Shown here one piece after another: positions 4,798-64,000 of a stretch of DNA of 64,000 nucleotides. Every line of letters starts with the position of its first letter. Positions within the stretch are counted from its first letter, which is position 1. Origin of the DNA: a virus (lineage: Duplodnaviria; Heunggongvirae; Uroviricota; Caudoviricetes). Below the pieces are notes generated by a model. The model did not search any database, had not been told where the DNA came from, and saw nothing but the letters and a program-made list of their open reading frames with translations. The translations under genes and the position numbers were made by a program. The stretch is taken from the IMG/VR virus record IMGVR_UViG_3300028048_000051, positions 111,843 through 175,842 of that record; one strand, written 5' to 3'.

Positions 4798-5278
4798 TGT
4801 CGGAAAAAGAACGGCAGTTCTCAGAAAGCAGCAGAAAACGGATGATATCATCAGATTTATCCGCAGCAGCTGGCGTTTGTGGACTGACGACCGAAACGAT
4901 CTGGAAATGGCGGTATCGCAACTCCACCGGGACAATGATGTCTCGGTGGAGCATCTTGCGATGCTTCTCGGGATTCCCGATGGGGTGTATTTCAAGCGCG
5001 TGAAGCAGACTGATGTCGCACGAGCGTTGCTCGATTTCCCCAAATCTGACTTGTTTGAAATATTTCTCAAGTGTGTTGACATGCGTAAATCCGCCGAGGC
5101 CTGTCTCTTTGCCGTAACCGGCAAGGAGGCGTTGGTTATCACCAACATGCAGACTGATTATGTCCCGGGCAAGATGCATCACTTCTTCAAGTCGATGCGC
5201 AATGCCAAGGATATTCATCTGTTCATGTCCGCGGAGGCGCCGGAGCGCTTGTCGATGTTCAGACATTTCGATCAATGA
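4754..5278 (+). CDS. hypothetical protein
   Basis: ORF with ATG start overlapping the end of the previous gene. Confidence 0.5.
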   Translation: MTNQASPQIAAFLSDVGKRTAVLRKQQKTDDIIRFIRSSWRLWTDDRNDLEMAVSQLHRDNDVSVEHLAMLLGIPDGVYFKRVKQTDVARALLDFPKSDLFEIFLKCVDMRKSAEACLFAVTGKEALVITNMQTDYVPGKMHHFFKSMRNAKDIHLFMSAEAPERLSMFRHFDQ

Positions 5279-9542: not shown

Positions 9543-10499
9543 ATGTTTGATTTCGATATGCCTCCCATCTCATGGAGGGAAGCAAGGATTCCCAAAAAAT
9601 CCGGGGGATTCCGTAAACTGGAGATCCCCAACGACGAGTTGAAGGCGGTACAACGTACTATCTTACAATACTTGTACCGTAACAAACGGCTTCGTCCGTC
9701 TGCCATGGCCCACGGGTTTGTTCCGTTCAGGAATACCTGCACGGCCCTGACACACCACAATACCAAAGCACCGATTATTCTGTGCATGGATATCCATGAC
9801 TTCTTCGGGACCTTTCCCCTGGAACCGGTGCGGGGGCGAATGCTGTCTGCCGGGTTGCCGGCTACTGTGGTGGACAAAATCCTGTCTGTCTGTACCTACA
9901 AGGGACATTTCCCTCAGGGTGCTCCGACTTCGCCGTATCTTACCAACATCGGAATGTTGGACACCGACAGGGTGCTTGCCGCCTACGCGTCGCGCCATGG
10001 TTACATCTACACCAGGTATGCCGACGACATTACCTTCTCTCTGAAGTCGTCTGAAAGGCCGATCAAAGGACAGGCATTCATTTTCTACGGCGTGGAGAAG
10101 ATTCTCAGTGTGATGCTGGGTATTCATCTCAAGAAATCCAAAAGTCACATCATCGACATCAAAGGTCGTGCCGCACGTCGCGTCACCGGTGTCGTGGTGC
10201 GCAAAGACGGGCTTGGGTTCAATGCACCGCGGAAAATGCGTAAAAACACTCGCGCCGGTATTCATAACCTGGCGGAGAAGATCAGGAAAAATCGAGGCAG
10301 GGTTTTCGACGAGGACCATCTGAAGTGGCGTGAACTGCTGGGTTATGCCAGGTACATGGATACGCTGCGCAGTTACAGCCCGGAACCGCAGGCGGCCGGA
10401 GCCGATCCGACGATATCTGAGATCGACTGGCGCTATCTGTGTCGGAAATTCAATTACAAGAAAGGATTGGAAGATGGAAATGGAACAATTCCCGATTGA
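9543..10499 (+). CDS. reverse transcriptase, small retron/DRT-like (RT domain only, 318 aa)
   Basis: Contains motif 1/2 IPKKSGGFRKLEIP, motif A ILCMDIHDFF, motif B' QGAPTSPYLTN, motif C YTRYADDITF, motif D/E LGIHLKKSKS, and an RRVTGVVV 'VTG' motif typical of retron-type RTs. Confidence 0.85.
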   Translation: MFDFDMPPISWREARIPKKSGGFRKLEIPNDELKAVQRTILQYLYRNKRLRPSAMAHGFVPFRNTCTALTHHNTKAPIILCMDIHDFFGTFPLEPVRGRMLSAGLPATVVDKILSVCTYKGHFPQGAPTSPYLTNIGMLDTDRVLAAYASRHGYIYTRYADDITFSLKSSERPIKGQAFIFYGVEKILSVMLGIHLKKSKSHIIDIKGRAARRVTGVVVRKDGLGFNAPRKMRKNTRAGIHNLAEKIRKNRGRVFDEDHLKWRELLGYARYMDTLRSYSPEPQAAGADPTISEIDWRYLCRKFNYKKGLEDGNGTIPD

Positions 10500-11412
10500 T
10501 GACGTGATCCCGGTGGATCATGCGCATCTGATCGAGGACCAAAACCGCCTGATCCTGCAACATGGTGGGGTGGTTACTCGCGTATTCTTCAACAAGGTAT
10601 CGCGGATGCCGCTGGATCATTATCTGAAGCACGAACTGCCGAAGGCTGACGGGACGACGAAATGTCACCTGATCCGAGACTACAACCACAATAACATCAC
10701 CATGATTCTGGACGATCACGTGGCGGTGTATGATGTGGCTTCGATCGAGGAAGTGTCTTTGAAAGATTTGGCCGACAACCTGATCACGACACAGAATCTG
10801 GAGCTGTTTCCAGATATTCCGTATCAGATCATCGGGTACATCAAACAACAGGACTGCCTGCTCGTCACGGTGTATATCCCAGCCAGTTGGTTCAATTACA
10901 GAGCTGCTGACGTGGATTCGGTGCGGGTGATGCATCCGCCGCTGTGGTTCAGAATCAAGCTCAACAATGCCGGAGCCCTGCTGTCTTCCGCCATGGCGGT
11001 GGTGCGAACCACAGAACCGCGATGGAAAAATACGCAGCTGTACAAATGGCTGTTGCCTAACGTATTTCCGAACAATGAAATATGTTTGGGATGTTCCCAA
11101 CTGTCCGGGGGCATCGATAATCCCACGAGCGGCCAGGCAATCATGTCGGTGTATCATCAGGTATTCGACAGTTTGTGGAACTACCATTTGTTCAACAGCG
11201 ATGATGCCGACAAGGCCGTCATGGCTGCATTCAATGCATTACCGAAAAACAGGGTACCGTTCGAGGGTCTGACGGACAAGGCACACAGTGCCACCGCATC
11301 CATAAAACGCATGCTGTCCGTGCTGCACCAGCCGGAAGGTTGGCGACAGATAAAATGGCCCGAGAATCAGTTTTCCGCCGAGGACTTTGTCCGAGGTAAG
11401 GGAGGTAGGTGA
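10474..11412 (+). CDS. hypothetical protein immediately downstream of and overlapping the RT gene
   Basis: Internal ATG (MEMEQF) of ORF 10330..11412. Contains VFPNNEICLGCSQL and MHPPLW segments with weak resemblance to E2/UEV-like HPN loops. Confidence 0.5.
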   Translation: MEMEQFPIDDVIPVDHAHLIEDQNRLILQHGGVVTRVFFNKVSRMPLDHYLKHELPKADGTTKCHLIRDYNHNNITMILDDHVAVYDVASIEEVSLKDLADNLITTQNLELFPDIPYQIIGYIKQQDCLLVTVYIPASWFNYRAADVDSVRVMHPPLWFRIKLNNAGALLSSAMAVVRTTEPRWKNTQLYKWLLPNVFPNNEICLGCSQLSGGIDNPTSGQAIMSVYHQVFDSLWNYHLFNSDDADKAVMAAFNALPKNRVPFEGLTDKAHSATASIKRMLSVLHQPEGWRQIKWPENQFSAEDFVRGKGGR

Positions 11413-12747: not shown

Positions 12748-13640
12748 ACATATATGTGATCGGCTGTGGAGGAATCGGAGGATATCTGCTGGACTTGCTG
12801 CCTCAGGCACTGGCCAGTGCCAGTCTCGATGCAATACAGGCCAACGGCACCGACATTACCCCCTTGCTGGAGAAAGCGGGTAATTGCTATATCCAATGTG
12901 TTGCCGACAGGCTGGTATTGATCGATGGCGACTCGTTCAATGCCCGCAATGCGCTGCGCCAGGGAGCAGGAGCCGGAGGCAAGCTGGTGACGCGCCTGCG
13001 GAGGATCAAGGATTCCATGCTGATGCAGACCTATCTGCAGGGCATGCATCTTTCAGGGGTCGATGGATACATCACCCCCGACAATATGGAGGATCTCATC
13101 CCTCGCATGGCTCCCGAAAACCCGGATAACATGCCGGACAACGCGTTTGCCGACAACTCTGGTGGGTTTGTGCTGCCAGGCCGCAAACACTATGCTTCCA
13201 CGGTAGTGTTCCTGTGCGTGGACAACGTCAAGACTCGGTACGAGGTTTCCAAATATATGGAGACATTCGATAATTGTCTAGTCATCAATGGCGGAAACGA
13301 GCGTACCACCGGGCATGTAACCGTGTATGAGAGGGTTGGCGGCATACCGCTTGATCCCAACATCATGGACATCTATCCCAACATCACGCCGGATGCCGAC
13401 AAGCGTCCGGACGAGTTGGCGTGTACTGCGGTAGCCCCCAAGCATGACCAGATCGCGGTCACCAATGCGATCGTAGCCAACGTGATGGCGATGATTTTCA
13501 TCCGATGGCTCGCCAACGGCACCATCAACCGGCAGATAACCCGCAAGGGATCTGTTGTGGTGGAACGCAAGAATGAAGTCGTCATCGACATAGAAACTAT
13601 GACGATGACTCCGTTGTATCACCCGAGAAACGATGGGTGA
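12741..13640 (+). CDS. ThiF/MoeB/E1-like ubiquitin-activating-enzyme family protein
   Basis: MLNIYVIGCGGIGGYLLDLL is the Rossmann GxGxxG motif. LIDGDSFNARNALRQ resembles the E1 motif LxDxDxVexSNLnRQ. ATG overlaps the upstream stop (ATGCTGA). Confidence 0.8.
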   Translation: MLNIYVIGCGGIGGYLLDLLPQALASASLDAIQANGTDITPLLEKAGNCYIQCVADRLVLIDGDSFNARNALRQGAGAGGKLVTRLRRIKDSMLMQTYLQGMHLSGVDGYITPDNMEDLIPRMAPENPDNMPDNAFADNSGGFVLPGRKHYASTVVFLCVDNVKTRYEVSKYMETFDNCLVINGGNERTTGHVTVYERVGGIPLDPNIMDIYPNITPDADKRPDELACTAVAPKHDQIAVTNAIVANVMAMIFIRWLANGTINRQITRKGSVVVERKNEVVIDIETMTMTPLYHPRNDG

Positions 13641-26226: not shown

Positions 26227-27387
26227 ATGTACAAAATTGCAGAGAATGTCCTGTCATGGTGCAATGATCCGGAGTCCGGAGCGCAGTTTCAGGCGATGAA
26301 TATCTCTCGCCATCCGTGTCTCATTGGCAATGTGTGTCTCATGCCGGACACGCATGAAGGTTACGGCATGCCGATAGGCGGCGTGGCGGCATTTGAAAAT
26401 GCCGTCTGTCCCAACATGGTCGGCGTGGATATCGGCTGTGGGATGCTCGCGGTGAGGACATCCATCATCGAAAAACCCGGTCGTGAGGAGCTGTGTCGGG
26501 TCGTACAGAAGATACGAGCGTCCGTTCCTGTCGGGACTTCCCATCAGAGTACACCGCAGCCCGACGAATTGTTCGACGAGCCGATTTGGAGCAGTAACAG
26601 TGTTTGCGGGTTTGAGTGCGAAAATGCCAAGCGACAACTTGGTACGCTCGGCGGTGGCAATCACTTCATCGAGCTGCAGTGGGGTGATGATGGGCATATG
26701 TGGCTCATGATCCATTCCGGCTCACGTAATCTCGGTAAAAAAGTTGCCGATTATTACAACAACATCGCGGTAGAACTCTGCACCAGATGGCGGCAGATCG
26801 AGTGCGTCAGGGATCAACTGGCTTTCTTGCCTCGCGGCACCACGGAATATACTGATTACATGCGCGAGATGAACGCCTGCATACGTTTCGGTCAGGCCAA
26901 TCGTCGACATATTGCCGATGCCGTGATCCGCGCGATCAGTGAGGTATTCAGCAGCCAATGTCCTGATTTTGCCGATCCCATCAACATCAAGCACAACTAC
27001 GCCACTCTGGAACATCACTACGGCAAGGATGTCATGGTACACCGCAAGGGCGCTACGCTTGCCAGGAAAGGCGTCATCGGTATCATTCCCGGGTCACAGG
27101 GCAGCTGCTCGTATATCGTGGAGGGTCTGGGTAACGAGGCGTCGCTTTGTTCCTGTTCACACGGAGCCGGCCGCAGAATGTCGCGTTCGCGCGCACGCTC
27201 AGTGTTGAGTCTTGAGGACGAGGTTGCCAAGATGGATGCTTGCGGCATAGTGCATGGCATCAGCTGTGCCGATGACCTGGACGAGGCGCCGTCCGCGTAC
27301 AAGGACATAGACACTGTCATGCGGGAGCAGGCTGATCTGGTGAAGCCGTTGGTGCAGCTTAGCCCGTTGGCGGTCATCAAAGGATAG
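26227..27387 (+). CDS. rtcB: RtcB-family RNA ligase
   Basis: MPDTHEGYGMPIGGV, GGGNHFIE, HRKGAT and SCSHGAGR are RtcB active-site motifs. CAAGGAGGAAAACCA ribosome-binding site. Confidence 0.9.
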   Translation: MYKIAENVLSWCNDPESGAQFQAMNISRHPCLIGNVCLMPDTHEGYGMPIGGVAAFENAVCPNMVGVDIGCGMLAVRTSIIEKPGREELCRVVQKIRASVPVGTSHQSTPQPDELFDEPIWSSNSVCGFECENAKRQLGTLGGGNHFIELQWGDDGHMWLMIHSGSRNLGKKVADYYNNIAVELCTRWRQIECVRDQLAFLPRGTTEYTDYMREMNACIRFGQANRRHIADAVIRAISEVFSSQCPDFADPINIKHNYATLEHHYGKDVMVHRKGATLARKGVIGIIPGSQGSCSYIVEGLGNEASLCSCSHGAGRRMSRSRARSVLSLEDEVAKMDACGIVHGISCADDLDEAPSAYKDIDTVMREQADLVKPLVQLSPLAVIKG

Positions 27388-32515: not shown

Positions 32516-32689
32516 ATGGATTTTGTGTTTTTCTATTTGATCGTGACTGCGTGGACATGGCTCGGCAGACAGTATATGCTGACATCTGAAGATGACCGTC
32601 GCGATTATTTTCGTAACGGCTTTGCCGAGTTCATCAGATGTCTTGGCTGGCCGTTGATGTTGATTAACCACAAGGAGAAAACTAAATGA
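32516..32689 (+). CDS. small hydrophobic protein
   Basis: Internal ATG of ORF 32468..32689; MDFVFFYLIVTAWTWL... Confidence 0.35.
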   Translation: MDFVFFYLIVTAWTWLGRQYMLTSEDDRRDYFRNGFAEFIRCLGWPLMLINHKEKTK

Positions 32690-33753
32690 GGAAGTTGGCA
32701 AGCATCAGAACGATAGAGTCTCTCAGTCCTATCGAGGGCGCGGATAAGATCGAGTTGGCTCATACCGGTGGATGGCAATGTGTGGTCGGCAAGGACCAGT
32801 TCAAACCTGGTGAAGCTGCTGTGTTTTTCGAGATCGACAGTGCTTTGGCTCCAAATGATGAGCGTTATGCTTTCTTGAAGCCGACATGTCTTAAGGAATG
32901 GCGGAACAAGGACGGACAGCTCGTTGATTCCTGTATACGGATTCGTACCATGCGGTTCCGTGGTCAGATCTCGCAGGGGTTGTTTATGCCCATTCACGAT
33001 TTTCCAGAGATTGTGGATAGGACTGAGGGAATTGACCTTACTGAAGTACTGCATGTACGGCATTTCGACCTGATCAAGGAGCAGGCCGATACCATTCTCG
33101 GCAAGGTAAAGCTCGCTGGAGACATCTATGGTAGTTTCCCATCGGCATTGGTCCCGAAGACCGATGAGGAAAGACTGCAGAATCTGATGGACTATTTCGA
33201 GACCAGGAAAGATGTAGCCTTTGAATGTACTGAGAAGTTCGACGGATGCAGCGTTACCTTTGGGTACTCCACCACGTTGGAGGATCCATTCTTTGTCTGT
33301 GGCAGAAACAACCGTCTCAAGGACACGGGAGAGAATCTCTACTGGCGAATGGCGAGAAAGTACGATCTGCAGCATCTTCTGGAGCAGTGCTCCAAGATGG
33401 GAACTGACCTGGCCATCCAAGCCGAGATAGTCGGTCCCGGAGTCAACGGCAATCGGGATCAATACACCGAGCATGAGATACGGGTATTTCGTATCTACGA
33501 CATGCAGAAGCAGCAGTGGTTGACTCCTGAAGCGCGTCATGCATTTTGTGAACGCCATAAACTGCCGCATGTCAAGATCGTCCGTGATAACTGGGAGGTG
33601 TTCAAGGAGTTCACATCGTTGGATGACTTCCTGAGGTTCGTTGAGGGCAAAACCGATCGGGGGCATGAGCGGGAGGGCATGGTGTGGAAATCTCTAAATG
33701 GTCGTACCAGCTTCAAGGTCATCAACAATAATTACTTGCTGAAGGAGAAGTGA
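32686..33753 (+). CDS. ATP-dependent polynucleotide ligase of the covalent nucleotidyltransferase superfamily, RNA-ligase-like
   Basis: TEKFDGCS (motif I KxDG lacking the Arg typical of DNA ligases) and EGMVWK (motif V). Confidence 0.6.
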   Translation: MRKLASIRTIESLSPIEGADKIELAHTGGWQCVVGKDQFKPGEAAVFFEIDSALAPNDERYAFLKPTCLKEWRNKDGQLVDSCIRIRTMRFRGQISQGLFMPIHDFPEIVDRTEGIDLTEVLHVRHFDLIKEQADTILGKVKLAGDIYGSFPSALVPKTDEERLQNLMDYFETRKDVAFECTEKFDGCSVTFGYSTTLEDPFFVCGRNNRLKDTGENLYWRMARKYDLQHLLEQCSKMGTDLAIQAEIVGPGVNGNRDQYTEHEIRVFRIYDMQKQQWLTPEARHAFCERHKLPHVKIVRDNWEVFKEFTSLDDFLRFVEGKTDRGHEREGMVWKSLNGRTSFKVINNNYLLKEK

Positions 33754-55565: not shown

Positions 55566-56764
55566 GCAAAAAGAAAAAGGAGGATAACAGAATGAATCAG
55601 AAAGGTATTGTGGCTATCATAGCCGTGGTCGTGGCGCTCGTGTTGGCGCTCATCATCAGCAATGTGTTTCTGCACAGCAACAACGTGCAGAACTTCCAGG
55701 TCATCCAATCCATTACCGGTGACATCGAGGTTCGTCATGACGGTGGATACTACTTCCGGGTGCTGCCCAAGATTTGGACGTACCCGAAGGTCAACACCGT
55801 GTTTTTCTCCAACGAGACGCAGGAGAGCAAAGAACGCGACGGCGTGCAGGTCCGCTTCTCCAACAAGGGCGAAGGCGATGTCTCCTGCCAGGTGGTGTAT
55901 CGTCTGTACACCGAGCAGGAATCCATCAAGCGGATGCACAACTATGCCGGCGGCAATATCGATGTGGTCGACAACCTGGTGTTGTCGAAGCTTAAGGATA
56001 TCGCCATGACCTGTGCCGCCAATATCACTTCCAGTCAGGCCATCGAGAACCGCGAGGAGTTTGCCAGCAACATCCGAAAGCTGTTTGTGAACAATCCGGA
56101 ACTCAAGGCTACCGGTATCGTTGTCGAACAGTTCTCGATCACGAAGATCAATTTCGACAAGATCACCACCGACCTGTTCCAGGCGCAACAGAAGGCAGAC
56201 CTGCAGAAGAAGACCGCGGAGGCCGAAAAGCAGAATCTGCTCATGCAGAAGGAGCGCACTGTTGCCCAATATGAACAGCAGGTTGCCGAGTCCAAGGGTA
56301 AGGCCGAGGTCGAGAAGATCAAGGCAGTGACCGACGCTCAGCGGCAGAAGGAACTTGCCGAGATCAAGGCTCAACAGGAAGTTGCTGTTGCCGAGCTCGC
56401 CAAGAAGCAGGCTACGGTTGAGGCCCAGAAGAAGCTGGAAGTTGCTGAAATTCAGAAAAAGGAAGAGGCTGCCAAGCTCGAAGTCATCCGTATTCAGGCC
56501 GAACAGAAGGTGGCCGCGGCAAAGGCACGTGAGCAGGAGATCAAGCTGTCCGGCGCCATGACCGAGCAGGAGAAGGTGCGGCTGGAGATCGAGAAGGAAA
56601 CCCGCATCGGAGTGGCCAAGGCGTGGGCCGACGGCATATCCCGTATGACCCTGCCGAGTACGGTCATGCTGGGTTCCGGAGCCAACGGATCTCCGGTCGG
56701 CGATTTGATCAATTTGATGACGGTCGAGAAGGCCAAAGCACTTGCCGCGAAGCCGAGCAAGTAA
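55562..56764 (+). CDS. SPFH/band-7 (flotillin/YqiK-like) membrane protein with long coiled coil
   Basis: N-terminal transmembrane segment, a beta-rich SPFH-like core, then Ala/Glu/Lys/Gln heptad repeats. Confidence 0.55.
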   Translation: MSKKKKEDNRMNQKGIVAIIAVVVALVLALIISNVFLHSNNVQNFQVIQSITGDIEVRHDGGYYFRVLPKIWTYPKVNTVFFSNETQESKERDGVQVRFSNKGEGDVSCQVVYRLYTEQESIKRMHNYAGGNIDVVDNLVLSKLKDIAMTCAANITSSQAIENREEFASNIRKLFVNNPELKATGIVVEQFSITKINFDKITTDLFQAQQKADLQKKTAEAEKQNLLMQKERTVAQYEQQVAESKGKAEVEKIKAVTDAQRQKELAEIKAQQEVAVAELAKKQATVEAQKKLEVAEIQKKEEAAKLEVIRIQAEQKVAAAKAREQEIKLSGAMTEQEKVRLEIEKETRIGVAKAWADGISRMTLPSTVMLGSGANGSPVGDLINLMTVEKAKALAAKPSK

Positions 56765-56813
56765 GACATTCATCGAACAATGGCCCTATAGAAAAACAGG
56801 CCAATATTTCTGC

Positions 56814-56846
56814 AAACACCGGGGTAACTCCCGGTGTTTGTTTTTA
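56814..56846 (+). terminator. rho-independent terminator
   Basis: AAACACCGGG / CCCGGTGTTT 10-bp stem then GTTTTT. Confidence 0.55.
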
Positions 56847-56923
56847 TGCCCACAGTGGGCAGAACAAATCGGGCTTTCAGTCCGTGCCGCCGGAAGCGGT
56901 AATAATCATAACGAGAGTATGAA

Positions 56924-57172
56924 GTGGGTAACAACAGAAAAAGTATCTTCCATTTGTGGAAGTCCATAGGTGCCACGAGAAAATTGCGCAAGATGGGCGC
57001 AGGACGTGGTGTGTATTGTCTGTACTATGAAATAGACGGTAAGCCGCTATACTGCATCCGCTGTACCAGACGTGATTCAAGGATAGTGGCTTATACGGAT
57101 CTGGAAGGAGCGTACTCGCTATGGAAATATTGTCCCTGCGCACCAAGGGTTGTGTCACGCTGGGGATGTTGA
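56924..57172 (+). CDS. hypothetical small Cys-rich protein
   Basis: 82-aa ORF followed directly by a strong terminator; weak ribosome-binding site. Confidence 0.3.
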   Translation: MGNNRKSIFHLWKSIGATRKLRKMGAGRGVYCLYYEIDGKPLYCIRCTRRDSRIVAYTDLEGAYSLWKYCPCAPRVVSRWGC

Positions 57173-57182
57173 AAATTTGACA

Positions 57183-57217
57183 GTCCTTCCGATGGATACG
57201 GGAGGACTTTTTTTTTT
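57183..57217 (+). terminator. rho-independent terminator (T10 tract)
   Basis: GTCCTTCCG / CGGGAGGAC stem with one G·U pair, then TTTTTTTTTT. Confidence 0.6.
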
Positions 57218-57350
57218 ACTCTTCGTCAGTCAGGCCGAGAAGGATCTCCATCGCCAGCACCACAGCAGGGTCTACGCATTCACATGGAGTGTACTCTTCG
57301 TCTTCGTCCGCCTTCAGGAATTCAGTTAGTTCCAGGACATCCCCGAACAT
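57216..57350 (-). CDS. small acidic protein (44 aa) immediately downstream of the sigma factor gene; candidate sigma-associated or anti-sigma factor
   Basis: MFGDVLELTEFLKADEDEEYTPCECVDPAVVLAMEILLGLTDEE. Same frame as the sigma gene and one codon after its stop (TGA ACG ATG), with AAGGGG ribosome-binding site. Confidence 0.35.
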   Translation of the reverse strand: MFGDVLELTEFLKADEDEEYTPCECVDPAVVLAMEILLGLTDEE

Positions 57351-57353
57351 CGT

Positions 57354-58211
57354 TCACACCCCTTCATGTCTGCCGGTGATTCCATCTGCCAACAGGCGTT
57401 TCTTCAGTGTTGCCAGTTCCTGCTGAAGGAATGCCTCGGTGTTTCTTATGGACATGCCGATCTCTTGGGCCACTACCTTAATAGGCCATGTCTTTTTGCC
57501 CATACCGAAAAACAACTCCACAGCCAATTTACCGCGGTCAGACAGTTGATCTATGTGTTTCTGCAGAGTTTTAACGAGCATTTCGTTATATGCAGCATCC
57601 TGAGGATCCTCGCATTCTGCACACAGCACGTCTCCAAACGTAAGTTCTTCATCCTCTTTGATTTTCTCATCTAACGAGCACGCGTGTACAGCAGCGTATT
57701 TGAGTGTCTTTACTGTGCCGAGTCCGATGTTGGACAGTGCGGCGAGTTCTTCATCGTCCGGCAGTCTGTCGAATTCACGTACAAAGGCCGCTTTTGCCTG
57801 TTCTATCTTGTGCAGTTGTCCTGTGGTTTGCGTAGACAGTTTCACTGCGTGCGCTTGTGCAGATATCGCCAAACGCATGGTCTGTTTGATCCAGTATGAA
57901 GCATAGGCTCCGAACTTAGGGCACTTGGAGGGATCGAAGCGTTGTGCTGCGATGATGAGTCCTAGATTACCTTCGGATACGAGATCCTGAAATCCAAGTC
58001 CGCAGTATTTCAGGTCGTGGGCTATCTTCACAACTAATCGCAGATTACCGGTGACAAGTTCGTTGATTGCGTTGGTGCGCTCTTCAGGAGTACCATGTTG
58101 GATGATCTCTGCGAGTTCCGTTTCGCGGGAACGGACGATGCGCGGGAACTGATTGATGCTGCGTACGTACCTGTTTACTGATTCGATCGGCGCCGCTGCT
58201 GTCTGTGTCAT
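57354..58211 (-). CDS. sigma-70 family RNA polymerase sigma factor
   Basis: Regions 2 (ELVTGNLRLVVKIAHDL...YASYWIKQ), 3 and 4 (helix-turn-helix near the C-terminus). AGGAGGAAGTACC ribosome-binding site before the ATG. Confidence 0.85.
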   Translation of the reverse strand: MTQTAAAPIESVNRYVRSINQFPRIVRSRETELAEIIQHGTPEERTNAINELVTGNLRLVVKIAHDLKYCGLGFQDLVSEGNLGLIIAAQRFDPSKCPKFGAYASYWIKQTMRLAISAQAHAVKLSTQTTGQLHKIEQAKAAFVREFDRLPDDEELAALSNIGLGTVKTLKYAAVHACSLDEKIKEDEELTFGDVLCAECEDPQDAAYNEMLVKTLQKHIDQLSDRGKLAVELFFGMGKKTWPIKVVAQEIGMSIRNTEAFLQQELATLKKRLLADGITGRHEGV

Positions 58212-58345
58212 GGTACTTCCTCCTACTGTATGGCTATGACGCTGATAAAGTATACTACTTAAAGTTGATAATTTCAAGTCGAAAACGACTTAATTTCAAA
58301 GGTTTTTTCGGCATAATATAATGGAACGAAAGTTCCAAAAGTAAA

Positions 58346-58365
58346 TTTTGTACTTAAGTACAAAA
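58346..58365. promoter_or_regulatory. perfect 20-bp palindrome TTTTGTACTTAAGTACAAAA (candidate operator) in a divergent promoter region
   Basis: Seen directly; lies 5 nt upstream of the AAGTATAACCCA motif, between the sigma gene and 58401. Confidence 0.45.
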
Positions 58366-58369
58366 TCAA

Positions 58370-58381
58370 AAGTATAACCCA
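58370..58381 (+). promoter_or_regulatory. conserved promoter-like motif AAGTATAACCCA (copy 1 of 4), 8 nt upstream of AGGAGGGTA
   Basis: Repeated at 59223, 60523 and 61856 at fixed distance from ribosome-binding site and ATG. Confidence 0.5.
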
Positions 58382-58400
58382 AACACAGGAGGGTACAAAA

Positions 58401-58769
58401 ATGAGTATGACCGCTACGTTGTTTCTGAAACTCGAAAAGGAGTTTTGCTCCGAAACATATTTTGACTTTCATGGCGTTCCGGCGCTTAAGCGCAAAATCG
58501 CCAGTCTTCGCAAGTTCATTCAGTCGTGCAGGTCATGGCTGGACAAAGAAACCTCGGATGATCTCAAACTAAAGCTCAAGGCTGCTGAAGCCGAGCTCGA
58601 CCGACGTCTGAATCCCGACATACCTTGTCGGGACTGCCGTCAATATCGTGTTGTCTGGAATTACCTGGACAATTGTCCGGAAGAGGTTCGGAACTGCCGT
58701 CGTGCATGGCAGAGTCATCCCTTCAAATGTCCGCGGAGAGTACACGGCGAAAAGAAGGAGGGCAGATGA
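58401..58769 (+). CDS. hypothetical protein
   Basis: ORF downstream of the motif and ribosome-binding site. Confidence 0.5.
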   Translation: MSMTATLFLKLEKEFCSETYFDFHGVPALKRKIASLRKFIQSCRSWLDKETSDDLKLKLKAAEAELDRRLNPDIPCRDCRQYRVVWNYLDNCPEEVRNCRRAWQSHPFKCPRRVHGEKKEGR

Positions 58770-59080
58770 TGGACTGGAGTGCTCTTTTTCAAAAACCAGC
58801 GCGGGAGCGCAAAGCACTCCGCGAACTGGATCTTGCGGATAAACTGGTCAGTTGGGGGACGGATCATATCTGGATCGCCAACGCCAAGTACCCGGTCACG
58901 TACATCAACGTGGCCAGGGACGTTGTTGACGGCGAATCGGTTATGCAGGCCGGAGATATCCGGTTCGCATACCGTAATAATGACAACCAGTGGTTGGATG
59001 GTATTGCCAGTCGCTACAAAACCGATGCGTGCATCGGTCATCCTGCCGCATGGCGGTGGGAGATAAAATTTTTCCACTGA
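58766..59080 (+). CDS. hypothetical protein
   Basis: Internal ATGATG of ORF 58625, preceded by AAGGAGGG. Confidence 0.5.
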   Translation: MMDWSALFQKPARERKALRELDLADKLVSWGTDHIWIANAKYPVTYINVARDVVDGESVMQAGDIRFAYRNNDNQWLDGIASRYKTDACIGHPAAWRWEIKFFH

Positions 59081-59222
59081 ACAAAAAAAAAAACAGGCTT
59101 GGGCAGTGCCGTTAAACTGCCCACCGTCCAGGCGGGTCGTTCCCGTCTGCCGATGAGCCAACGATCCGCAAAACAGCGGTAAAGGCGAAACGGTAACGTC
59201 GTTACGGTCATTGTTCAGCCGT

Positions 59223-59234
59223 AACGATTCACAA
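59223..59234 (+). promoter_or_regulatory. AAGTATAACCCA motif copy 2
   Basis: acaAGTATAACCCAaacataAGGAGGGTAcatcATG. Confidence 0.5.
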
Positions 59235-59263
59235 GTATAACCCAAACATAAGGAGGGTACATC

Positions 59264-60283
59264 ATGAACGTCAACACCAACACCATTAACAACAACGTCA
59301 TCAGCTGCCGTGATCTCGAGCTTCCGTTCAACGAGGCTCTGCTCACAGCCAACGAGAAGCTCTTCATCGAGAAGGGCTGGGACGGCGAGGCCTGCCTCAA
59401 GACCGCGCTGCGTTTCGAAGATGTGGTTGCCGTCCACGACGGCGAGTTCCACAGCGATGAGGTTCTGAGCCTCGCGCTGTTGGTAGTATTCGCGGGGCTG
59501 GACCCCGAACAGCGGATGCGGACCCGCGATCCGAAGAAGCTCATGGACGCCGACCTCCGGGTCGACGTGGGCGAAGGCCTCCTCGACCATCACGGCGCTC
59601 GTGCCACCACCGGAGTAGCGGCCTGCAGCCGGGTGTTCGCGTTGTTGAGAAACACCGGAGTTTTCCGTAAACTAGCGCTGTCGACCAGGGCGGTAGACGC
59701 CCTGGTCGACCTGGTCGATCGGGTAGCCGCGGTCGACACCGGCGATCCCAATGCCGAGGGGCACTGGATCATCGACATGGTCCAGACTTTTAATCGGGCC
59801 ACTACAGTAATAACTGGAGAAGATTTCTTCGACCGCGCCGTAGCGGCGGTCGTCGACGCTCTTCAATGCATCATCGGCATTGCCGATGCCGAGGCGATCG
59901 CAACCAATGCGGCGCTTGATGCGATCGTGGCCGCTGACGGGGATGCCGTCGTGGCATTCCCGGCGGAAGCCCGGGCGGCGAAGTGCAAGGAGCTGTTGTG
60001 GAAACACGCGAAGGACTGCGTGTACTACGTCAGCCCCGAGAGTCCTGACGATTGGCGCATTCTTTGCGCCGCGGCTCCGGAAGTCAGCCCCGCGGACGGA
60101 AAGGCATTCGCTTTCTCCAGCCGTCGACTGATCCCGGAGAGATTCCGAGGACTTCGCGGAGAACAACTCTCGGAGGTCACCGGCATCGACGGAGGCATCT
60201 TCAGCCACGCGGCAGGTTTTATCGCGGGTTTCAAGACTCGCGAGGCGGCAATCCATTTCGCGGTGCTTTGTCTCCGCGACTGA
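59264..60283 (+). CDS. MYG1/UPF0160-like metal-dependent hydrolase family protein (high-GC gene)
   Basis: VAVHDGEFHSDEVLSLALL resembles the MYG1 signature THNGTFHCDEALACALL. GC content is clearly above the surrounding genome. Confidence 0.4.
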   Translation: MNVNTNTINNNVISCRDLELPFNEALLTANEKLFIEKGWDGEACLKTALRFEDVVAVHDGEFHSDEVLSLALLVVFAGLDPEQRMRTRDPKKLMDADLRVDVGEGLLDHHGARATTGVAACSRVFALLRNTGVFRKLALSTRAVDALVDLVDRVAAVDTGDPNAEGHWIIDMVQTFNRATTVITGEDFFDRAVAAVVDALQCIIGIADAEAIATNAALDAIVAADGDAVVAFPAEARAAKCKELLWKHAKDCVYYVSPESPDDWRILCAAAPEVSPADGKAFAFSSRRLIPERFRGLRGEQLSEVTGIDGGIFSHAAGFIAGFKTREAAIHFAVLCLRD

Positions 60284-60295
60284 TTTAATGATCGG

Positions 60296-60375
60296 GGGGC
60301 CGGAAGAGGTTCGACGGGGCGCAAAGCCAAAGCGCAAAGCTCCGGACAGGGATTCGATTCCCCTCGGCTCCACCA
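60296..60375 (+). ncRNA. tmRNA tRNA-like-domain mimic (5' and 3' tmRNA termini fused, about 80 nt, genomically encoded CCA, G3·U70 acceptor pair)
   Basis: GGGGCCGGAAGAGGUUCGACGGGG... resembles the tmRNA 5' end GGGGCUGAUUCUGGAUUCGACGGG. ...GGACAGGGAUUCGAUUCCCCUCGGCUCCACCA resembles the tmRNA 3' end GGACGCGGGUUCAACUCCCGCCAGCUCCACCA. No mRNA-like domain. Confidence 0.45.
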
Positions 60376-60388
60376 ATTCTTTCATGGG

Positions 60389-60461
60389 GGCGCGGTAGCT
60401 CAAAGGTAGAGCTCTCGACGCTTAATCGAGCGGGTGAAGGTTCGAGTCCTTCCTGCGCCCC
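60389..60461 (+). tRNA. tRNA (anticodon-loop positions give CUU = Lys, but with unusual G at position 33)
   Basis: Acceptor GGCGCGG/CUGCGCC; U8A9; D-stem GCUC/GAGC; anticodon stem CUCGA/UCGAG with loop CGCUUAA; T-arm GAAGG-UUCGAGU-CCUUC. Confidence 0.65.
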
Positions 60462-60522
60462 CGTCATTTTATAAATCAATATGGACGTCATCCACGGTGG
60501 GTGGCGTCCTTTTTATTTCCCA

Positions 60523-60533
60523 AAGTATAACCA
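60523..60533 (+). promoter_or_regulatory. AAGTATAACC(A) motif copy 3
   Basis: cccaAAGTATAACCAAGGAGaataaaaATG. Confidence 0.45.
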
Positions 60534-60545
60534 AGGAGAATAAAA

Positions 60546-61088
60546 ATGAAGAAGGTTTTTTCAATGTTTTTGGCGCTCATTTGCGCCGTTACCGTCTTTG
60601 CCGGATTCCCGGCCAACATATACATCGCGGATCCACAGGACGTCGCGTCCGTGGTGTCCAAACTGCAGAAGCAGCAGAACGCCGAAACAGTGTACGTCGA
60701 AACCTTTATGCAGGGTTTCCGCGCTGGCTTCACAATAGCCAGTGACAAGGAGTTGGGAACTCTCGAACTGCGGTACGTTCGTAAGAAGGTAGAGGAGTTC
60801 GTGGCTACTAAGCTGGTTCCGGTCCTGAAGCGGGATGGCTTTTATGAAGACTGGCGAAAGGCCCAGTTTGATCCGGAGCAGATCTTCATGGTCGAGGACG
60901 TTGTACAGATGTATCTCGATCATGAGGCTTACTCCCCTAAGGAGCTGATGGCTAAAATAGAAAAGCATGTGGCCATCATGAGGAAGAAGCATCCTGTCAT
61001 AAAGATGATGGAAAACGATCCCAAATACGTGGGTATGATCGTTATCCTGAACAGAGATATCGTCGCCCACTTCAAACAGGACAAGTGA
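60546..61088 (+). CDS. secreted protein with signal peptide
   Basis: MKKVFSMFLALICAVTVFAGFPA... Confidence 0.5.
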   Translation: MKKVFSMFLALICAVTVFAGFPANIYIADPQDVASVVSKLQKQQNAETVYVETFMQGFRAGFTIASDKELGTLELRYVRKKVEEFVATKLVPVLKRDGFYEDWRKAQFDPEQIFMVEDVVQMYLDHEAYSPKELMAKIEKHVAIMRKKHPVIKMMENDPKYVGMIVILNRDIVAHFKQDK

Positions 61089-61214
61089 TCATGGCCAAGG
61101 TCAAAATGGTACTTTGTTTCGCGGTCGGAGATTTCTTCGACTTCGCCGGTTGCGGTATTTGTGCGGCTCGTTGGTACCTGCGCGGTGCCAATTGCATCAA
61201 GGGAGGTGACTACA

Positions 61215-61658
61215 ATGAGTAACCATCTCACTTTTGATGAAGCAGTCAACGACGGCAGTTTCATTCTCAGGTTCCTGATGCAAGGCCTGGAGACCGGTAA
61301 GAGCATTACTCCGGAGCAGGCCATCCGCAACGGTGAGAAGATATTCGCCAAGATCAGGGCGAAGGGCATCACCGGAGCAGATGTCACCTTGCTACGTGCC
61401 TACAAGGCCATAGTGCAGGCCGAGTACATCATCAGGTCTTGTCCGGAAGACGCTCCGTTGCCGGCGCGTATTCTTGGCACTCTCGCCAAGGAAACGCAAC
61501 AGGCGATCATCCGCACTTGGACCTTCAAGGGTCCTGGTAACGACGACCGGTGTCGCGACGCCAGGTTCCGGGCATTGAAAGAGATAGAGTTCAGGTTGAG
61601 GGTCATTCAGCAGATCTTCAACAAACTGGGCTACGATATGGGGGATACGGAACAATGA
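61215..61658 (+). CDS. hypothetical protein
   Basis: Internal ATG of ORF 61161, preceded by GGGAGGTGAC. Confidence 0.5.
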   Translation: MSNHLTFDEAVNDGSFILRFLMQGLETGKSITPEQAIRNGEKIFAKIRAKGITGADVTLLRAYKAIVQAEYIIRSCPEDAPLPARILGTLAKETQQAIIRTWTFKGPGNDDRCRDARFRALKEIEFRLRVIQQIFNKLGYDMGDTEQ

Positions 61659-61780
61659 ATAATCTCCCTGCTTGGACTCAGGCACTCTTGCTGATTACCG
61701 GTATTACGCTGATAGTTATCGGCGTAGCCGGTGCGTTTGACAAGGCCGAGAAGGATTACGAAGATCCTGATCGGTGGTAA
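61655..61780 (+). CDS. small membrane peptide (41 aa)
   Basis: MNNLPAWTQALLLITGITLIVIGVAGAF... Confidence 0.3.
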   Translation: MNNLPAWTQALLLITGITLIVIGVAGAFDKAEKDYEDPDRW

Positions 61781-61855
61781 TGTAAAGTATCTCGGAAGCA
61801 TGGCGCCCTATCCCCATTGGGGCGATCTCCTCCGTGCTTCCGAGATTTTTCTTTT

Positions 61856-61867
61856 AAGTATAACCCA
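61856..61867 (+). promoter_or_regulatory. AAGTATAACCCA motif copy 4
   Basis: ttttAAGTATAACCCAGGAGGGTAaacacaaATG. Confidence 0.5.
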
Positions 61868-61882
61868 GGAGGGTAAACACAA

Positions 61883-62248
61883 ATGAGTGAAGTCAAAAAA
61901 GAGCAACCCACGTTGATCGAAGGCCGTTGGTATTGGGTGAAGAAACATCACGCGGTACCGGAATGCGCCTTGTATGGAACCAAGGACGGCATCAGAGGGT
62001 TCCATCTGATATATGAAGACGACAAGGTCTACCAGTTGGAAGACTTCGAGCTCTTCATCGGAGAGGCAATCAACCCGGCGTTGAAGAAAATATACAACAT
62101 CCTGAAGAAGGATATTAAAGCCAAGTTGGCCGATGTGGAGCTGCGCATGCTATATAACCACGTTTGTCGCAACACTTGCGTGGTGGAAGGCTGTCCGGAA
62201 TCCCAGATGAGGGAGTGTTTCCTCGTCAGAATGAAGAAAAATTTGTAA
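61883..62248 (+). CDS. hypothetical protein
   Basis: ORF downstream of the motif and ribosome-binding site. Confidence 0.5.
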   Translation: MSEVKKEQPTLIEGRWYWVKKHHAVPECALYGTKDGIRGFHLIYEDDKVYQLEDFELFIGEAINPALKKIYNILKKDIKAKLADVELRMLYNHVCRNTCVVEGCPESQMRECFLVRMKKNL

Positions 62249-62354
62249 CAGATGTCGTTACTTATTGTCGGGAGCCATCGTTCCGGCTCCCTCCAATAAG
62301 TACAACATCGTAAAATGCCTGCTTACGCAAGGCTAGACAAAGGAGAATCATGAG

Positions 62355-62573
62355 ATGAAAAATATAATCAAAAAAATCAATGACTGTGTGGAAAATATAA
62401 AGAAAAGCCTACTGCCGCGGTGTATCCACAAGTGGACTCTTTACAGAGGCCATTATTATGTGGACAACGACGGAAATCGTCATGTGGTGGTGCGTTGCAA
62501 CAAGTGCGGCGCCATGATGACGTCGTTCGGAGTACTGCGTCCGGAAGAGCTCATCAGCGTGAAGGAGGCGTAG
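62355..62573 (+). CDS. hypothetical small Zn-ribbon-like protein
   Basis: ORF with AAAGGAGAATC ribosome-binding site. Confidence 0.5.
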   Translation: MKNIIKKINDCVENIKKSLLPRCIHKWTLYRGHYYVDNDGNRHVVVRCNKCGAMMTSFGVLRPEELISVKEA

Positions 62574-62575
62574 TA

Positions 62576-62611
62576 TGGGATTCAAAACATTTACTTGCGT
62601 CATCTGCGGCT
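62576..62611 (+). repeat. direct repeat copy 1: truncated duplicate of the 5' end of gene 63126 (encodes MGFKTFTCVICG then stop)
   Basis: ATGGGATTCAAAACATTTACTTGCGTCATCTGCGGC versus ATGGGATTCAAGACTTTCACCTGTGTCATCTGCGGC at 63126. Confidence 0.5.
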
Positions 62612-62652
62612 AATCTCTCCTAAAAGGAGGATTAAAAAAAAGGAGTAACGAC

Positions 62653-63105
62653 ATGGATTTCAAGCGCATCATGAAGTACATCATTCCGGTTGAGAAGCAG
62701 ATTCCCACCGGTGATGTCGATGAGCAGAGTCTGTTTTATCAAAAGGTCGAAGGCCGGTGGGAGTTGGTTTACGACTATTATCGCGACAGTGCCGGTCATG
62801 AGTATGAGAATCAGAGAATCGGTAATCTTCCGCGAATCGAAGATAATCTTCCGCACAACGGAATTCGTACGATCAATCCGACTGTTGATTATAACGGTAA
62901 CATGGCGATCGTGATCGAGGGAACGATCTCCTATGACGGCGATAACATCATGAATGACAACTTCCGTCTGCGCACGGAGATCAAGGAGCAGATGATGTTC
63001 GAAGTTCAGCGGATTTTCGACGAGGCTCGTAGCCGCATTCGTGAGCAGAAGAAACGTCTTGACGATCTGCTTGCCAAATATGAGCATCTTCCGATCAAGG
63101 GCTAA
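62653..63105 (+). CDS. hypothetical protein (cassette between direct repeats)
   Basis: ORF with AAAAAAGGAGTAACGAC ribosome-binding site. Confidence 0.5.
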   Translation: MDFKRIMKYIIPVEKQIPTGDVDEQSLFYQKVEGRWELVYDYYRDSAGHEYENQRIGNLPRIEDNLPHNGIRTINPTVDYNGNMAIVIEGTISYDGDNIMNDNFRLRTEIKEQMMFEVQRIFDEARSRIREQKKRLDDLLAKYEHLPIKG

Positions 63106-63125
63106 CAAACAATGAGGAGATCAAA

Positions 63126-63161
63126 ATGGGATTCAAGACTTTCACCTGTGTCATCTGCGGC
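63126..63161 (+). repeat. direct repeat copy 2 (intact 5' end of gene 63126..63926)
   Basis: See copy 1. Confidence 0.5.
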
Positions 63162-63926
63162 AAGGAAGGACTGACGAAGCGCAGCAGCTATGCGGTAGGC
63201 GTTGGTCGTGCCTGCAGGGAACACCAGGAGGCGCAGGATGCCAATAACAAACGGCAGGAGGCCTGTCGGAAGGCACAGGAAAAGCGAGATGACATCGTTG
63301 CCGAATTACGGAAGATGAATCGTCGTAATTTCCTGCCCTGTGATATAGAGCAGTATGATTTCAGATGTCTGGAATATCTGGAGTCGGCCGCGTCGGACAA
63401 CACGACTAACGGCTTCATGACTGAAATACTTCCGTTGTTGAGACAACTCGCGAAATCTCCATATGCATTCTACCCGCGACACTACACCCAGATGGCCCTG
63501 GATGACATAGAAAAAATGCTTGACGAGGACAACTGCCAGATGCACTTTGTAAAGGCGGTCGTGAAGAACGCCAAAGATGCATTGCGTCGGGACAGTCTGA
63601 GACAGTTGAACAGCAATCTTGTCGCCCAGGTGGAGAAGTGCTTGTTGGATTGGTGTCGTGCCACTGTCGCAGTACTGAAGGCGCCTGTGGAGAAACGTAC
63701 TCCGATAATGCTTGAAGCAGTATTGAAGACGTTGAGGCAGGTCAGGGAAACCGAAAAGCAGTTTTCTCAGCTGGACTATCGGTTGTGGGCCTTCACCGAT
63801 GACACTTCGGTATATCCGGCTCACGTGGAGAAACTGCATTGTTTGCGCTATGCGATTGTATCCATGGGCGGAAGGCAGGAGAAACTTCCGGAATTACTTC
63901 GCATGGTGATGACGTTGCGGAAGTGA
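63126..63926 (+). CDS. hypothetical protein with N-terminal CxxC...C..H cluster
   Basis: ORF. Confidence 0.55.
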   Translation: MGFKTFTCVICGKEGLTKRSSYAVGVGRACREHQEAQDANNKRQEACRKAQEKRDDIVAELRKMNRRNFLPCDIEQYDFRCLEYLESAASDNTTNGFMTEILPLLRQLAKSPYAFYPRHYTQMALDDIEKMLDEDNCQMHFVKAVVKNAKDALRRDSLRQLNSNLVAQVEKCLLDWCRATVAVLKAPVEKRTPIMLEAVLKTLRQVRETEKQFSQLDYRLWAFTDDTSVYPAHVEKLHCLRYAIVSMGGRQEKLPELLRMVMTLRK

Positions 63927-63942
63927 AGGAAACCACACGTGG

Positions 63943-63974
63943 AGACGGCTTGGATGCCGTCTTTTTTTTTTTTT
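63943..63974 (+). terminator. rho-independent terminator (T13 tract)
   Basis: AGACGGC / GCCGTCT stem, TTGGAT loop, then 13 T. Confidence 0.65.
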
Positions 63975-64000
63975 ACCCTATAGGTGGAAATATTAAAAGG

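Follow-up and report, generated by a model that had tools for sequence, protein, structure and literature searches.

T4 late promoters (TATAAATA) are read by gp55, a minimal and highly diverged sigma factor that needs gp33 and the sliding clamp. T4-type phages also carry composite terminator/promoter elements, called PeSLs, in hyperplastic regions, where they mediate insertions, deletions and replacements of genes (Arbiol 2010, PMC2839356; Comeau 2014, PMC4122927). The promoters of the phiEco32 sigma factor gp36 consist of a single element, tAATGTAtA, which occurs six times in the genome and has the transcription start 6-8 bp downstream of it (PMC8948821). Hammerhead ribozymes have been found to flank variable single genes or short blocks near prophage integrases, implying the processing of long transcripts (Perreault 2011, PMC3088659). 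Here we analysed a 64-kb stretch of DNA from a Caudoviricetes virus (positions 111,843 to 175,842 of IMG/VR record IMGVR_UViG_3300028048_000051, hereafter the window), in which a 10-mer, AAGTATAACC, recurs ahead of small accessory genes beside a phage sigma-factor gene. We consider it probable, with moderate confidence, that this 10-mer is a phage-specific, -35-independent, -10-type promoter heading gene cassettes, plausibly read by the adjacent phage sigma.

A conserved 10-mer ahead of accessory genes

A preliminary description of this DNA had reported a recurring element before genes 58401, 59264, 60546 and 61883, and we found an exact 10-mer at all four, always on the + strand (Table 1). 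The exact copies were restricted to 3.5 kb, and no further one occurred in the remaining window or in the 10 kb past either end (~84 of ~176 kb). When up to one mismatch was allowed, there were 8 matches in 64 kb compared to 1.39 +/- 1.16 in dinucleotide-preserving shuffles, none of which (0/100) reached 8; the four mismatched matches lie inside coding sequence elsewhere in the window. By k-mer count, AAGTATAACC is among just seven non-trivial 10-mers with at least four copies in the window, and the counts revealed no other comparable repeated intergenic motif there.

The relation of the motif to the ribosome-binding site (RBS) is looser than had been described. The spacing from ...ACC to AGGAG is 7, 8, 1 and 1 nt for copies 1-4, and at copy 4 the final A of the motif doubles as a base of the RBS. 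The RBS AGGAGGGTA, claimed as common to all, is present at copies 1, 2 and 4, and copy 3 has AAGGAGAATA in its place; the claimed gap of 5-7 nt between RBS and ATG fails at copy 2, where it is 4 nt. Among relatives the motif ranges from abutting the RBS to lying a few tens of nucleotides away, and because of this variable distance the two do not form the single fused unit that had been proposed. RNA folding around the four copies left the motif unpaired, with weak ACCC/GGGU pairing, and gave no conserved RNA structure.

Related sigma genes were found in three further phages, at 87% identity in L014, L015, L016 and L026 (all one phage), at 80% in L017 (a 178-kb contig) and at 70% in L018 and L019. 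The L014, L017 and L018 phages contain 13 additional motif sites in the same interval between the sigma and integrase genes, often before different genes. In every such relative the motif is on the gene strand and confined to this interval, with none on the far side of the sigma gene. L014 has five exact copies together with AAGTATACCC and cAGTATAGGAGG, L017 has two exact copies together with AAGTATAGCC, AAGTATAAGG and cAGTATAAGGAG, and the L018 site reads AAGTATAAGGAGG. The position counts over the 17 sites of the four phages are A15 A17 G17 T17 A17 T17 A17 A14 C13 C13, with the AGTATA core invariant at 17/17, and no sequence conservation was detected 5' of the motif over these sites. At the junctions orthologous to copies 3 and 4, the T tail, spacer and RBS show substitutions and indels; since AAGTATA remains untouched there while its surroundings change, the 10-mer itself is under selection.

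Megablast with 56000-64000 gave no match among GenBank phages. Scans of IMG/VR with the sigma, and with the motif plus RBS, returned a sigma match only in L001 (31% identical), whose motif copy is antisense and within a gene, together with nine single, apparently random pattern matches. In a GTDB genome scan there was just one sigma, 26% identical, in a metagenome-assembled genome of Candidatus Harrisonbacteria, and a scan of JGI metagenomes gave L026 alone, identical to L014.

We found that stable hairpins end 0-17 nt 5' of all 17 motif sites. In the window, the separator ahead of the motif is a promoter plus hairpin at copy 1, a hammerhead candidate at copy 2 and an intrinsic terminator at copies 3 and 4. 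Both terminators are kept at orthologous positions in L014 and L017, and between the strong terminator and the next RBS the 10-mer is the sole conserved sequence, at these two copies as well as at their orthologues. The hammerhead candidates, the terminators and a coding-sequence-less transfer-messenger RNA (tmRNA) had been overlooked in the earlier account.

The window hammerhead candidate is composed of ACCG-GUC, stem I (CAGGCGGG..CCCGUCUG), CCGAUGA, stem II, GAAA and CGGU. In all four candidates identified in the window and its relatives, the three stems (I, II and III) are present together with a GUC or GUA triplet; stem sequences vary from phage to phage with pairing kept. These stems were parsed by script; a MAFFT alignment of the four misplaced the 5' strand. 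The core CUGAUGA...GAAA is perfect in L014 and L017 and reads CCGAUGA in the window phage and L018. Because the Rfam scores (21.9-28.1 bits) are all under the gathering thresholds and two copies carry the U4-to-C change, we refer to these elements as candidate ribozymes.

The tmRNA-like RNA and a tRNA-Lys(CUU) lie between the MYG1-like gene and copy 3. The former amounts to the tRNA-like domain alone (G3:U70 acceptor stem, T arm and ACCA), with 16-18 nt replacing the tag/pseudoknot region, and it has counterparts at L014 6111-6032 and L017 8770-8690; the Rfam scores are 52-62 bits, above the gathering threshold, and ARAGORN made no call of the RNA at 60296-60375. A precedent for a phage tmRNA that lacks a coding sequence exists in mycobacteriophage DS6A, whose RNA inhibits the tmRNA of the host (PMC11915505). 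In addition, a second tRNA-like 3' end (...GGUGUAGUUCCCGGCGGCUCCACCA) was seen on the minus strand of L014 at ~5168-5249, between the tmRNA-like gene and tRNA-Lys of that phage, as a weak alpha_tmRNA match of 20 bits.

The genes that follow these junctions appear to be exchanged between phages. Gene lists differ among the window phage, L014 and L017, and blastn places the breakpoints at the motif. In the comparison of the window with L017, similarity ends at 58337, just past the GGAAC hairpin, and resumes at 59233, which is base 1 of the motif (L017 9825), so that operon 1 is present in one phage and missing in the other. The block shared by L014 9427-9389 and L017 9825-9784 covers the motif, RBS, ATG and a few codons only, with unrelated genes following, and window 59182-59285 matches L014 9478-9378 in a likewise short block at the motif. 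The array is a mosaic whose recombination breakpoints coincide with the motif. As the 10-mer and RBS block is common to otherwise unrelated cassettes, it would also act as a homology patch at which related phages exchange cassettes. Furthermore, the MYG1-like gene has 62-65% GC over 59500-60100 against ~50% in its surroundings, consistent with recent acquisition of that cassette.

A proposed promoter role and its alternatives

The neighbouring sigma gene proved genuine, as had been stated, with Pfam and phrog_351 matches (Table 1). Its product can be aligned over regions 1.2-4 to primary sigmas and to RpoS, and its identity to short primary sigmas is 35-40%. In region 4.2 it reads IRNTEAFLQQ, compared to RTRERVRQIQ in host-type sigmas, the stretch of the -35-reading helix, and the canonical -35-contacting residues are replaced. 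Alignment of the four motif-phage sigmas (E. coli sigma-70 numbering) revealed Y for W433, L for R441, and Q and G for H455 and E458; regions 2.4 and 3.0 also differ from those in the sigmas of motif-less loci. At the DNA level, none of the 17 sites matched TTGACA above background (1-4 of 6 positions at best), and no TG extension was found at the motif sites. The missing -35 box and the changes in region 4.2 are two observations that fit together. The sigma changes would suit a promoter that works without a -35 box and is contacted differently near the -10 box, which is a fit and not a proof.

A promoter role is the simplest one because units 2 and 3 follow strong terminators with only the 10-mer conserved before the RBS; this is the main argument for it. 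Promoter activity, the start site and the identity of the sigma that would read the motif are inferred. The phage promoter class envisaged in the preliminary description gains from the motif being non-random, strand-specific, gene-proximal and conserved where the downstream genes differ, and is weakened by some sites being too near the RBS for -10-to-start spacing. Each unit has the order separator, 10-mer, RBS and gene or genes. Unit 1 would be transcribed from the promoter at 58295-58322 and end at the terminator at 60483-60519, taking in operon 1, the hammerhead candidate, the MYG1-like gene, the tmRNA-like RNA and tRNA-Lys. Unit 2 would comprise 60546-61780, and unit 3 would run from 61883 onward. 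The most plausible reader would be host RNA polymerase with the adjacent phage sigma.

Two registers of the -10 hexamer were considered. With AAGTAT, A-11 and T-7 are invariant (17/17) and 3/6 consensus positions are matched; transcription would start ~6-8 nt downstream, at or just before the RBS. With TATAAC, the match to TATAAT is 5/6, the last position being C, G or A and never T. The sites preceded by a terminator read AAGTAT-N6/7-GGAG (window copies 3 and 4, L014 4780 and 3434, and L017 7285); at these, the AAGTAT register would make the first G of the RBS, a purine, the start, and the TATAAC register would put the start inside or beyond the RBS. Over all sites, the predicted start falls at or before the RBS at 13/17 and past it at 4/17.

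Several observations weigh against a promoter. At 4/17 sites (AAGTATAAGGAGG and similar) the RBS abuts the motif, where a start 6-8 nt on would exclude the RBS, and one of these, L017 8544, follows a terminator; such abutment is the main argument against a promoter, or else one in favour of short leaders being translated. Copy 1 already lies 48 nt downstream of a canonical promoter, and the ribozyme candidate before copy 2 implies a read-through RNA carrying the motif. A phage sigma regulon made of accessory cassettes alone, as seen in ~84 of ~176 kb, would be unusual. The link between motif and sigma draws on adjacency and plausibility, and sigma relatives at 38-40% identity (L021, L022 and L024) share no motif; these loci keep the lone-sigma layout, and taken by itself the absence of the motif there has no bearing either way on the link.

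The motif could instead act in RNA, which we regard as unlikely but as a serious alternative. A long read-through RNA from 58295-58322 would then be cut by hammerheads, RNase P or RNase Z, and single-stranded AAGUAUAACC 5' of the RBS would be the site of a sequence-specific, RNA-binding translational regulator or of an endoribonuclease, either of which would determine the translation or the 5' end of each cistron. This would account for a motif that is always abutting to a few tens of nucleotides 5' of an RBS and is predicted to be unpaired, and the direct abutment at four sites is easier to reconcile with a translational operator than with a -10 box. Copy 1 falls in the 5' untranslated region of the canonical promoter, and the hammerhead candidates just upstream of motif copies point to intercistronic RNA processing in the array (cf. 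PMC3088659). The strong conserved terminators before copies 3 and 4, however, would leave little read-through RNA, and host RNase sites are usually degenerate, unlike an invariant 7-10-mer. We identified no candidate RNA-binding protein or nuclease, and found neither a conserved RNA structure nor a complementary partner; the motif complement, GGTTATACTT, is absent from the tmRNA-like RNA, the tRNA and elsewhere.

If the motif is a promoter, its reader might be the primary sigma of the host, to which it would be an early promoter of a weak or extended -10-like type (TATAAC), as in T4-type PeSLs, making the phage sigma irrelevant. We find this improbable. The 5/6 agreement of TATAAC with TATAAT speaks for it, as do the T-rich terminator tails at the place of an UP element and the hypervariable small-gene block near canonical promoters, which is typical of early regions (PMC4122927). 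The sites, however, are without a -35 box or TG extension, and their last hexamer base is C, G or A and never the critical T. Moreover, the phage's own canonical promoters look different (TTCAAA-16-TATAAT), and the conserved AAG upstream and ACC downstream would be unneeded by a host sigma.

It is very unlikely that the motif is primarily a recombination signal, that is, a crossover site of integron-like shuffling via a tyrosine recombinase or a mere homology patch with no role in expression. Two comparisons do place a similarity breakpoint precisely at the first base of the motif, the gene content of the array varies between close relatives, and the array is bordered by a Phage_integrase gene in L014 and L017 as well as in the window phage. 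The reverse complement, GTTATAC, also resembles GTTRRRY, the integron core sequence. The motif lies, however, outside any imperfect inverted repeat, with no attC-like R''/R' pairing, and the upstream hairpins are terminators or ribozymes, unrelated in sequence. The recombinase gene is convergent, at the far end of the array and itself between 25-nt direct repeats like an inserted element, and other breakpoints are located a few codons inside genes, which is what homologous exchange predicts. We give still less credence to the 10-mer as, instead of or besides a promoter, the dedicated crossover or recognition site of large-phage cassette exchange, an integron analogue in which self-expressing cassettes (10-mer, RBS, gene, and ribozyme or terminator) would be swapped at a fixed phosphodiester bond, possibly by the tyrosine recombinase at the array end. 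An integron attC site was ruled out on architecture, the motif being outside the hairpins and the hairpins unrelated, and the idea of a sigma-dependent pause element, placed downstream of the canonical promoter, was discarded as it could fit copy 1 only.

The divergent region and the wider locus

The coordinates of the features in the window, with the counterparts that bear on them, are collected in Table 1.

Table 1. Sequence features of the sigma-to-integrase interval and counterparts in related phages (window numbering unless a relative is named)
Feature	Position	Strand	Remarks
Acidic 44-aa open reading frame (MFGDVLELTEFLKADEDEEYTPCECVDPAVVLAMEILLGLTDEE)	57216..57350	-	directly 3' of sigma gene
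Phage sigma-70-family factor, 285 aa	57354..58211	-	Pfam Sigma70_r2 and r3, phrog_351
Canonical-type promoter TTGAAA-17-TATACT	58249..58277	-	faces sigma gene; includes AGTATAct
Canonical sigma-70-type promoter TTCAAA-16-TATAAT	58295..58322	+	faces gene array; kept in L014, L018
GGAAC-GAAA-GTTCC hairpin	58323..58336	+	at or just after predicted rightward start; kept in L014, L017, L018
22-bp perfect palindrome	58345..58366		within 32-bp insertion between CAAAAGTA direct repeats
Motif copy 1, AAGTATAACC	58370..58379	+	RBS AGGAGGGTA 58387-58395; ATG 58401; L014 orthologue at 9871
Type III hammerhead ribozyme candidate	59123..59194	+	operon 1/copy 2 spacer; U4-to-C core change
11-bp-stem hairpin	59198..59228	+	ends 4 nt before copy 2
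Motif copy 2	59233..59242	+	RBS 59251-59259; ATG 59264 (MYG1-like gene)
Coding-sequence-less tmRNA, 80 nt	60296..60375	+	52.2 bits vs gathering score 47
tRNA-Lys(CUU)	60389..60462	+	conserved in L014, L017
Intrinsic terminator, 12-bp stem and T tail	60483..60519	+	ends 3 nt 5' of copy 3
Motif copy 3	60523..60532	+	RBS AAGGAG 60533-60538; ATG 60546; orthologues L014 4781, L017 8544 (AAGTATAAGG)
Long-stem intrinsic terminator and T tail	61789..61855	+	abuts copy 4; -45 kcal/mol, z = -4.9
Motif copy 4	61856..61865	+	RBS 61867-61875; ATG 61883; orthologues L014 3435 (AAGTATACCC), L017 7286 (AAGTATAGCC)
Conserved 62-nt hairpin element	62254..62315	+	100% identical in L014, 88% in L017; flanking genes differ
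Hammerhead candidate	L014 8761-8683	-	perfect CUGAUGAG...CGAAAC core; Rfam Hammerhead_3 28.1 bits, E = 2e-4, 161-nt search
Hammerhead candidates	L017 6171-6110; L018 82-21	-	spacers just 5' of motif copies

In this area, the sigma gene and the small open reading frame that follows it are the only minus-strand genes. A frame of 43-44 aa behind the sigma gene is also found in L014/L015/L016 and L018/L019, with none called in L017, and the strongly acidic product could be a sigma partner or an anti-sigma. The switch-like region between the sigma gene and gene 58401 was for the most part as described before. The consensus TATAAT is present at 58317-58322, with TTCAAA 16 bp upstream, and both this box and the GGAAC-GAAA-GTTCC hairpin are conserved in all relatives. 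The palindrome TTTTGTACTTAAGTACAAAA is likewise perfect at 58346-58365, and we found that it extends to 22 bp. A role as a conserved operator is not supported, because the palindrome belongs to a lineage-specific 32-bp insertion lacking in the relatives: L014/L015/L016 and L018 are without it, L014 having GTTCCAAAAAAGTATAACC and L018 having GTTCCATAAATTTAACCCAAGTATAAGG.

Two further hairpins were observed in the array. The conserved element at 62254-62315 has an 18-bp stem, TACTTATTGTCGGGAGCC / GGCTCCCTCCAATAAGTA, with no T tail, and its 3' arm contains AATAAGTACAAC, which resembles the motif and the half-site of the 58345 palindrome alike. At 59083-59123 an A11 run is followed by the hairpin GGGCAGTGCCGTTAAACTGCCC, the pattern of a minus-strand intrinsic terminator; no minus-strand gene is close by, and the element may be a barrier against antisense transcription.

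To the right of the sigma gene, small + strand genes form the array, which is closed just past the window by a tyrosine-recombinase gene in convergent orientation; tail-fibre-like genes follow. The array is a hypervariable accessory-gene interval between the phage sigma gene and the integrase. In L027 the integrase gene was seen between 25-nt direct repeats (10903-10927 and 12901-12925, or ~64030 and ~66028 in window numbering) that are 84% identical and have the exact core GAAGCGTCAAACGAT, and it may represent a mobile insertion and not a lysogeny gene belonging to the phage itself. The window is part of a contig of ~175.8 kb (ENA ERZ27252073 k141_1341108), and the genome is probably circular or circularly permuted, with window coordinates running past the end of the record.

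The phage gene set includes NrdD, RtcB, RNA ligase, DNA polymerase A, helicases and a reverse-transcriptase-like gene. The last of these matches RVT_1 and lies in a conserved block (window 9543-10499 (+), L029 6960-7652), and in L029, a closely related contig, a GIY-YIG endonuclease gene interrupts the one for DNA polymerase A. One phage carries tRNA-Lys(CUU) at 60389-60462, an RtcB tRNA ligase at 26227-27387, an RNA ligase at 32686-33753 and a MYG1-like exonuclease at 59264-60283, possibly an RNA-repair set that counters anticodon nucleases targeting tRNA-Lys.

Comparison with known systems

If the 10-mer is the promoter class of the adjacent sigma, the locus would offer a ready sigma/promoter pair from an uncultivated ~176-kb phage of an anaerobe, and the substitutions in regions 2.4, 3.0 and 4.2 could be linked with an unusual -10 sequence. 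Gene shuffling at regulatory cassettes, as in T4-type phages, would then be seen to operate in an unrelated phage lineage, with ribozymes and tRNA-like RNAs among the separators. In practice, the motif can serve as a boundary marker for the accessory cassettes of this phage group, which are likely to hold host-takeover or anti-defence genes.

The PeSLs of T4-type phages are similar in placing composites of stem-loop or terminator and promoter between small genes, and in using a short regulatory block as a recombination patch. The upstream stem-loop and the hyperplastic, variable location that define them are both found at our locus, and a near-consensus bipartite sigma-70 promoter is not: PeSLs have TTGACA-N17-TATAAT-like promoters, whereas here there is a single 10-mer without a -35 box. 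Hammerhead candidates and tRNA-like RNAs are additional separators at our locus, and the phage, which has a primary-like sigma, is not shown to be T4-like.

The promoters of phiEco32 gp36 share with the 10-mer one short element, the lack of a -35 box, a low copy number, a similar GTATA core and a phage with its own sigma-70-family factor. They differ in preceding middle and late genes and in having mapped starts, whereas the 10-mer precedes accessory cassettes only, as far as seen, and its start is predicted. Furthermore, gp36 is without region 4, and the sigma described here retains a diverged region 4 in which the -35-contacting residues are replaced. T4 late promoters are likewise -35-less, -10-only, AT-rich and read by a phage sigma, here a putative one; their consensus and gene class are different, and gp55 depends on gp33 and the sliding clamp.

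The hammerhead-associated blocks of prophages resemble this locus in having a ribozyme near an integrase and adjoining genes of varying identity. No conserved 10-mer between ribozyme and RBS was described for them (PMC3088659), and here only some junctions have hammerhead candidates, 2/4 with the U4-to-C core change. Integrons are comparable in that an array of short cassettes lies near a tyrosine recombinase, with a conserved short boundary sequence after a hairpin. In contrast to integrons, this array has no attC architecture, its cassettes would be self-expressing, its recombinase is convergent and distal, and its hairpins are terminators or ribozyme candidates. The 10-mer is most likely a phage-specific promoter combined with a regulatory shuffling cassette, which would place it among the known types of phage element.

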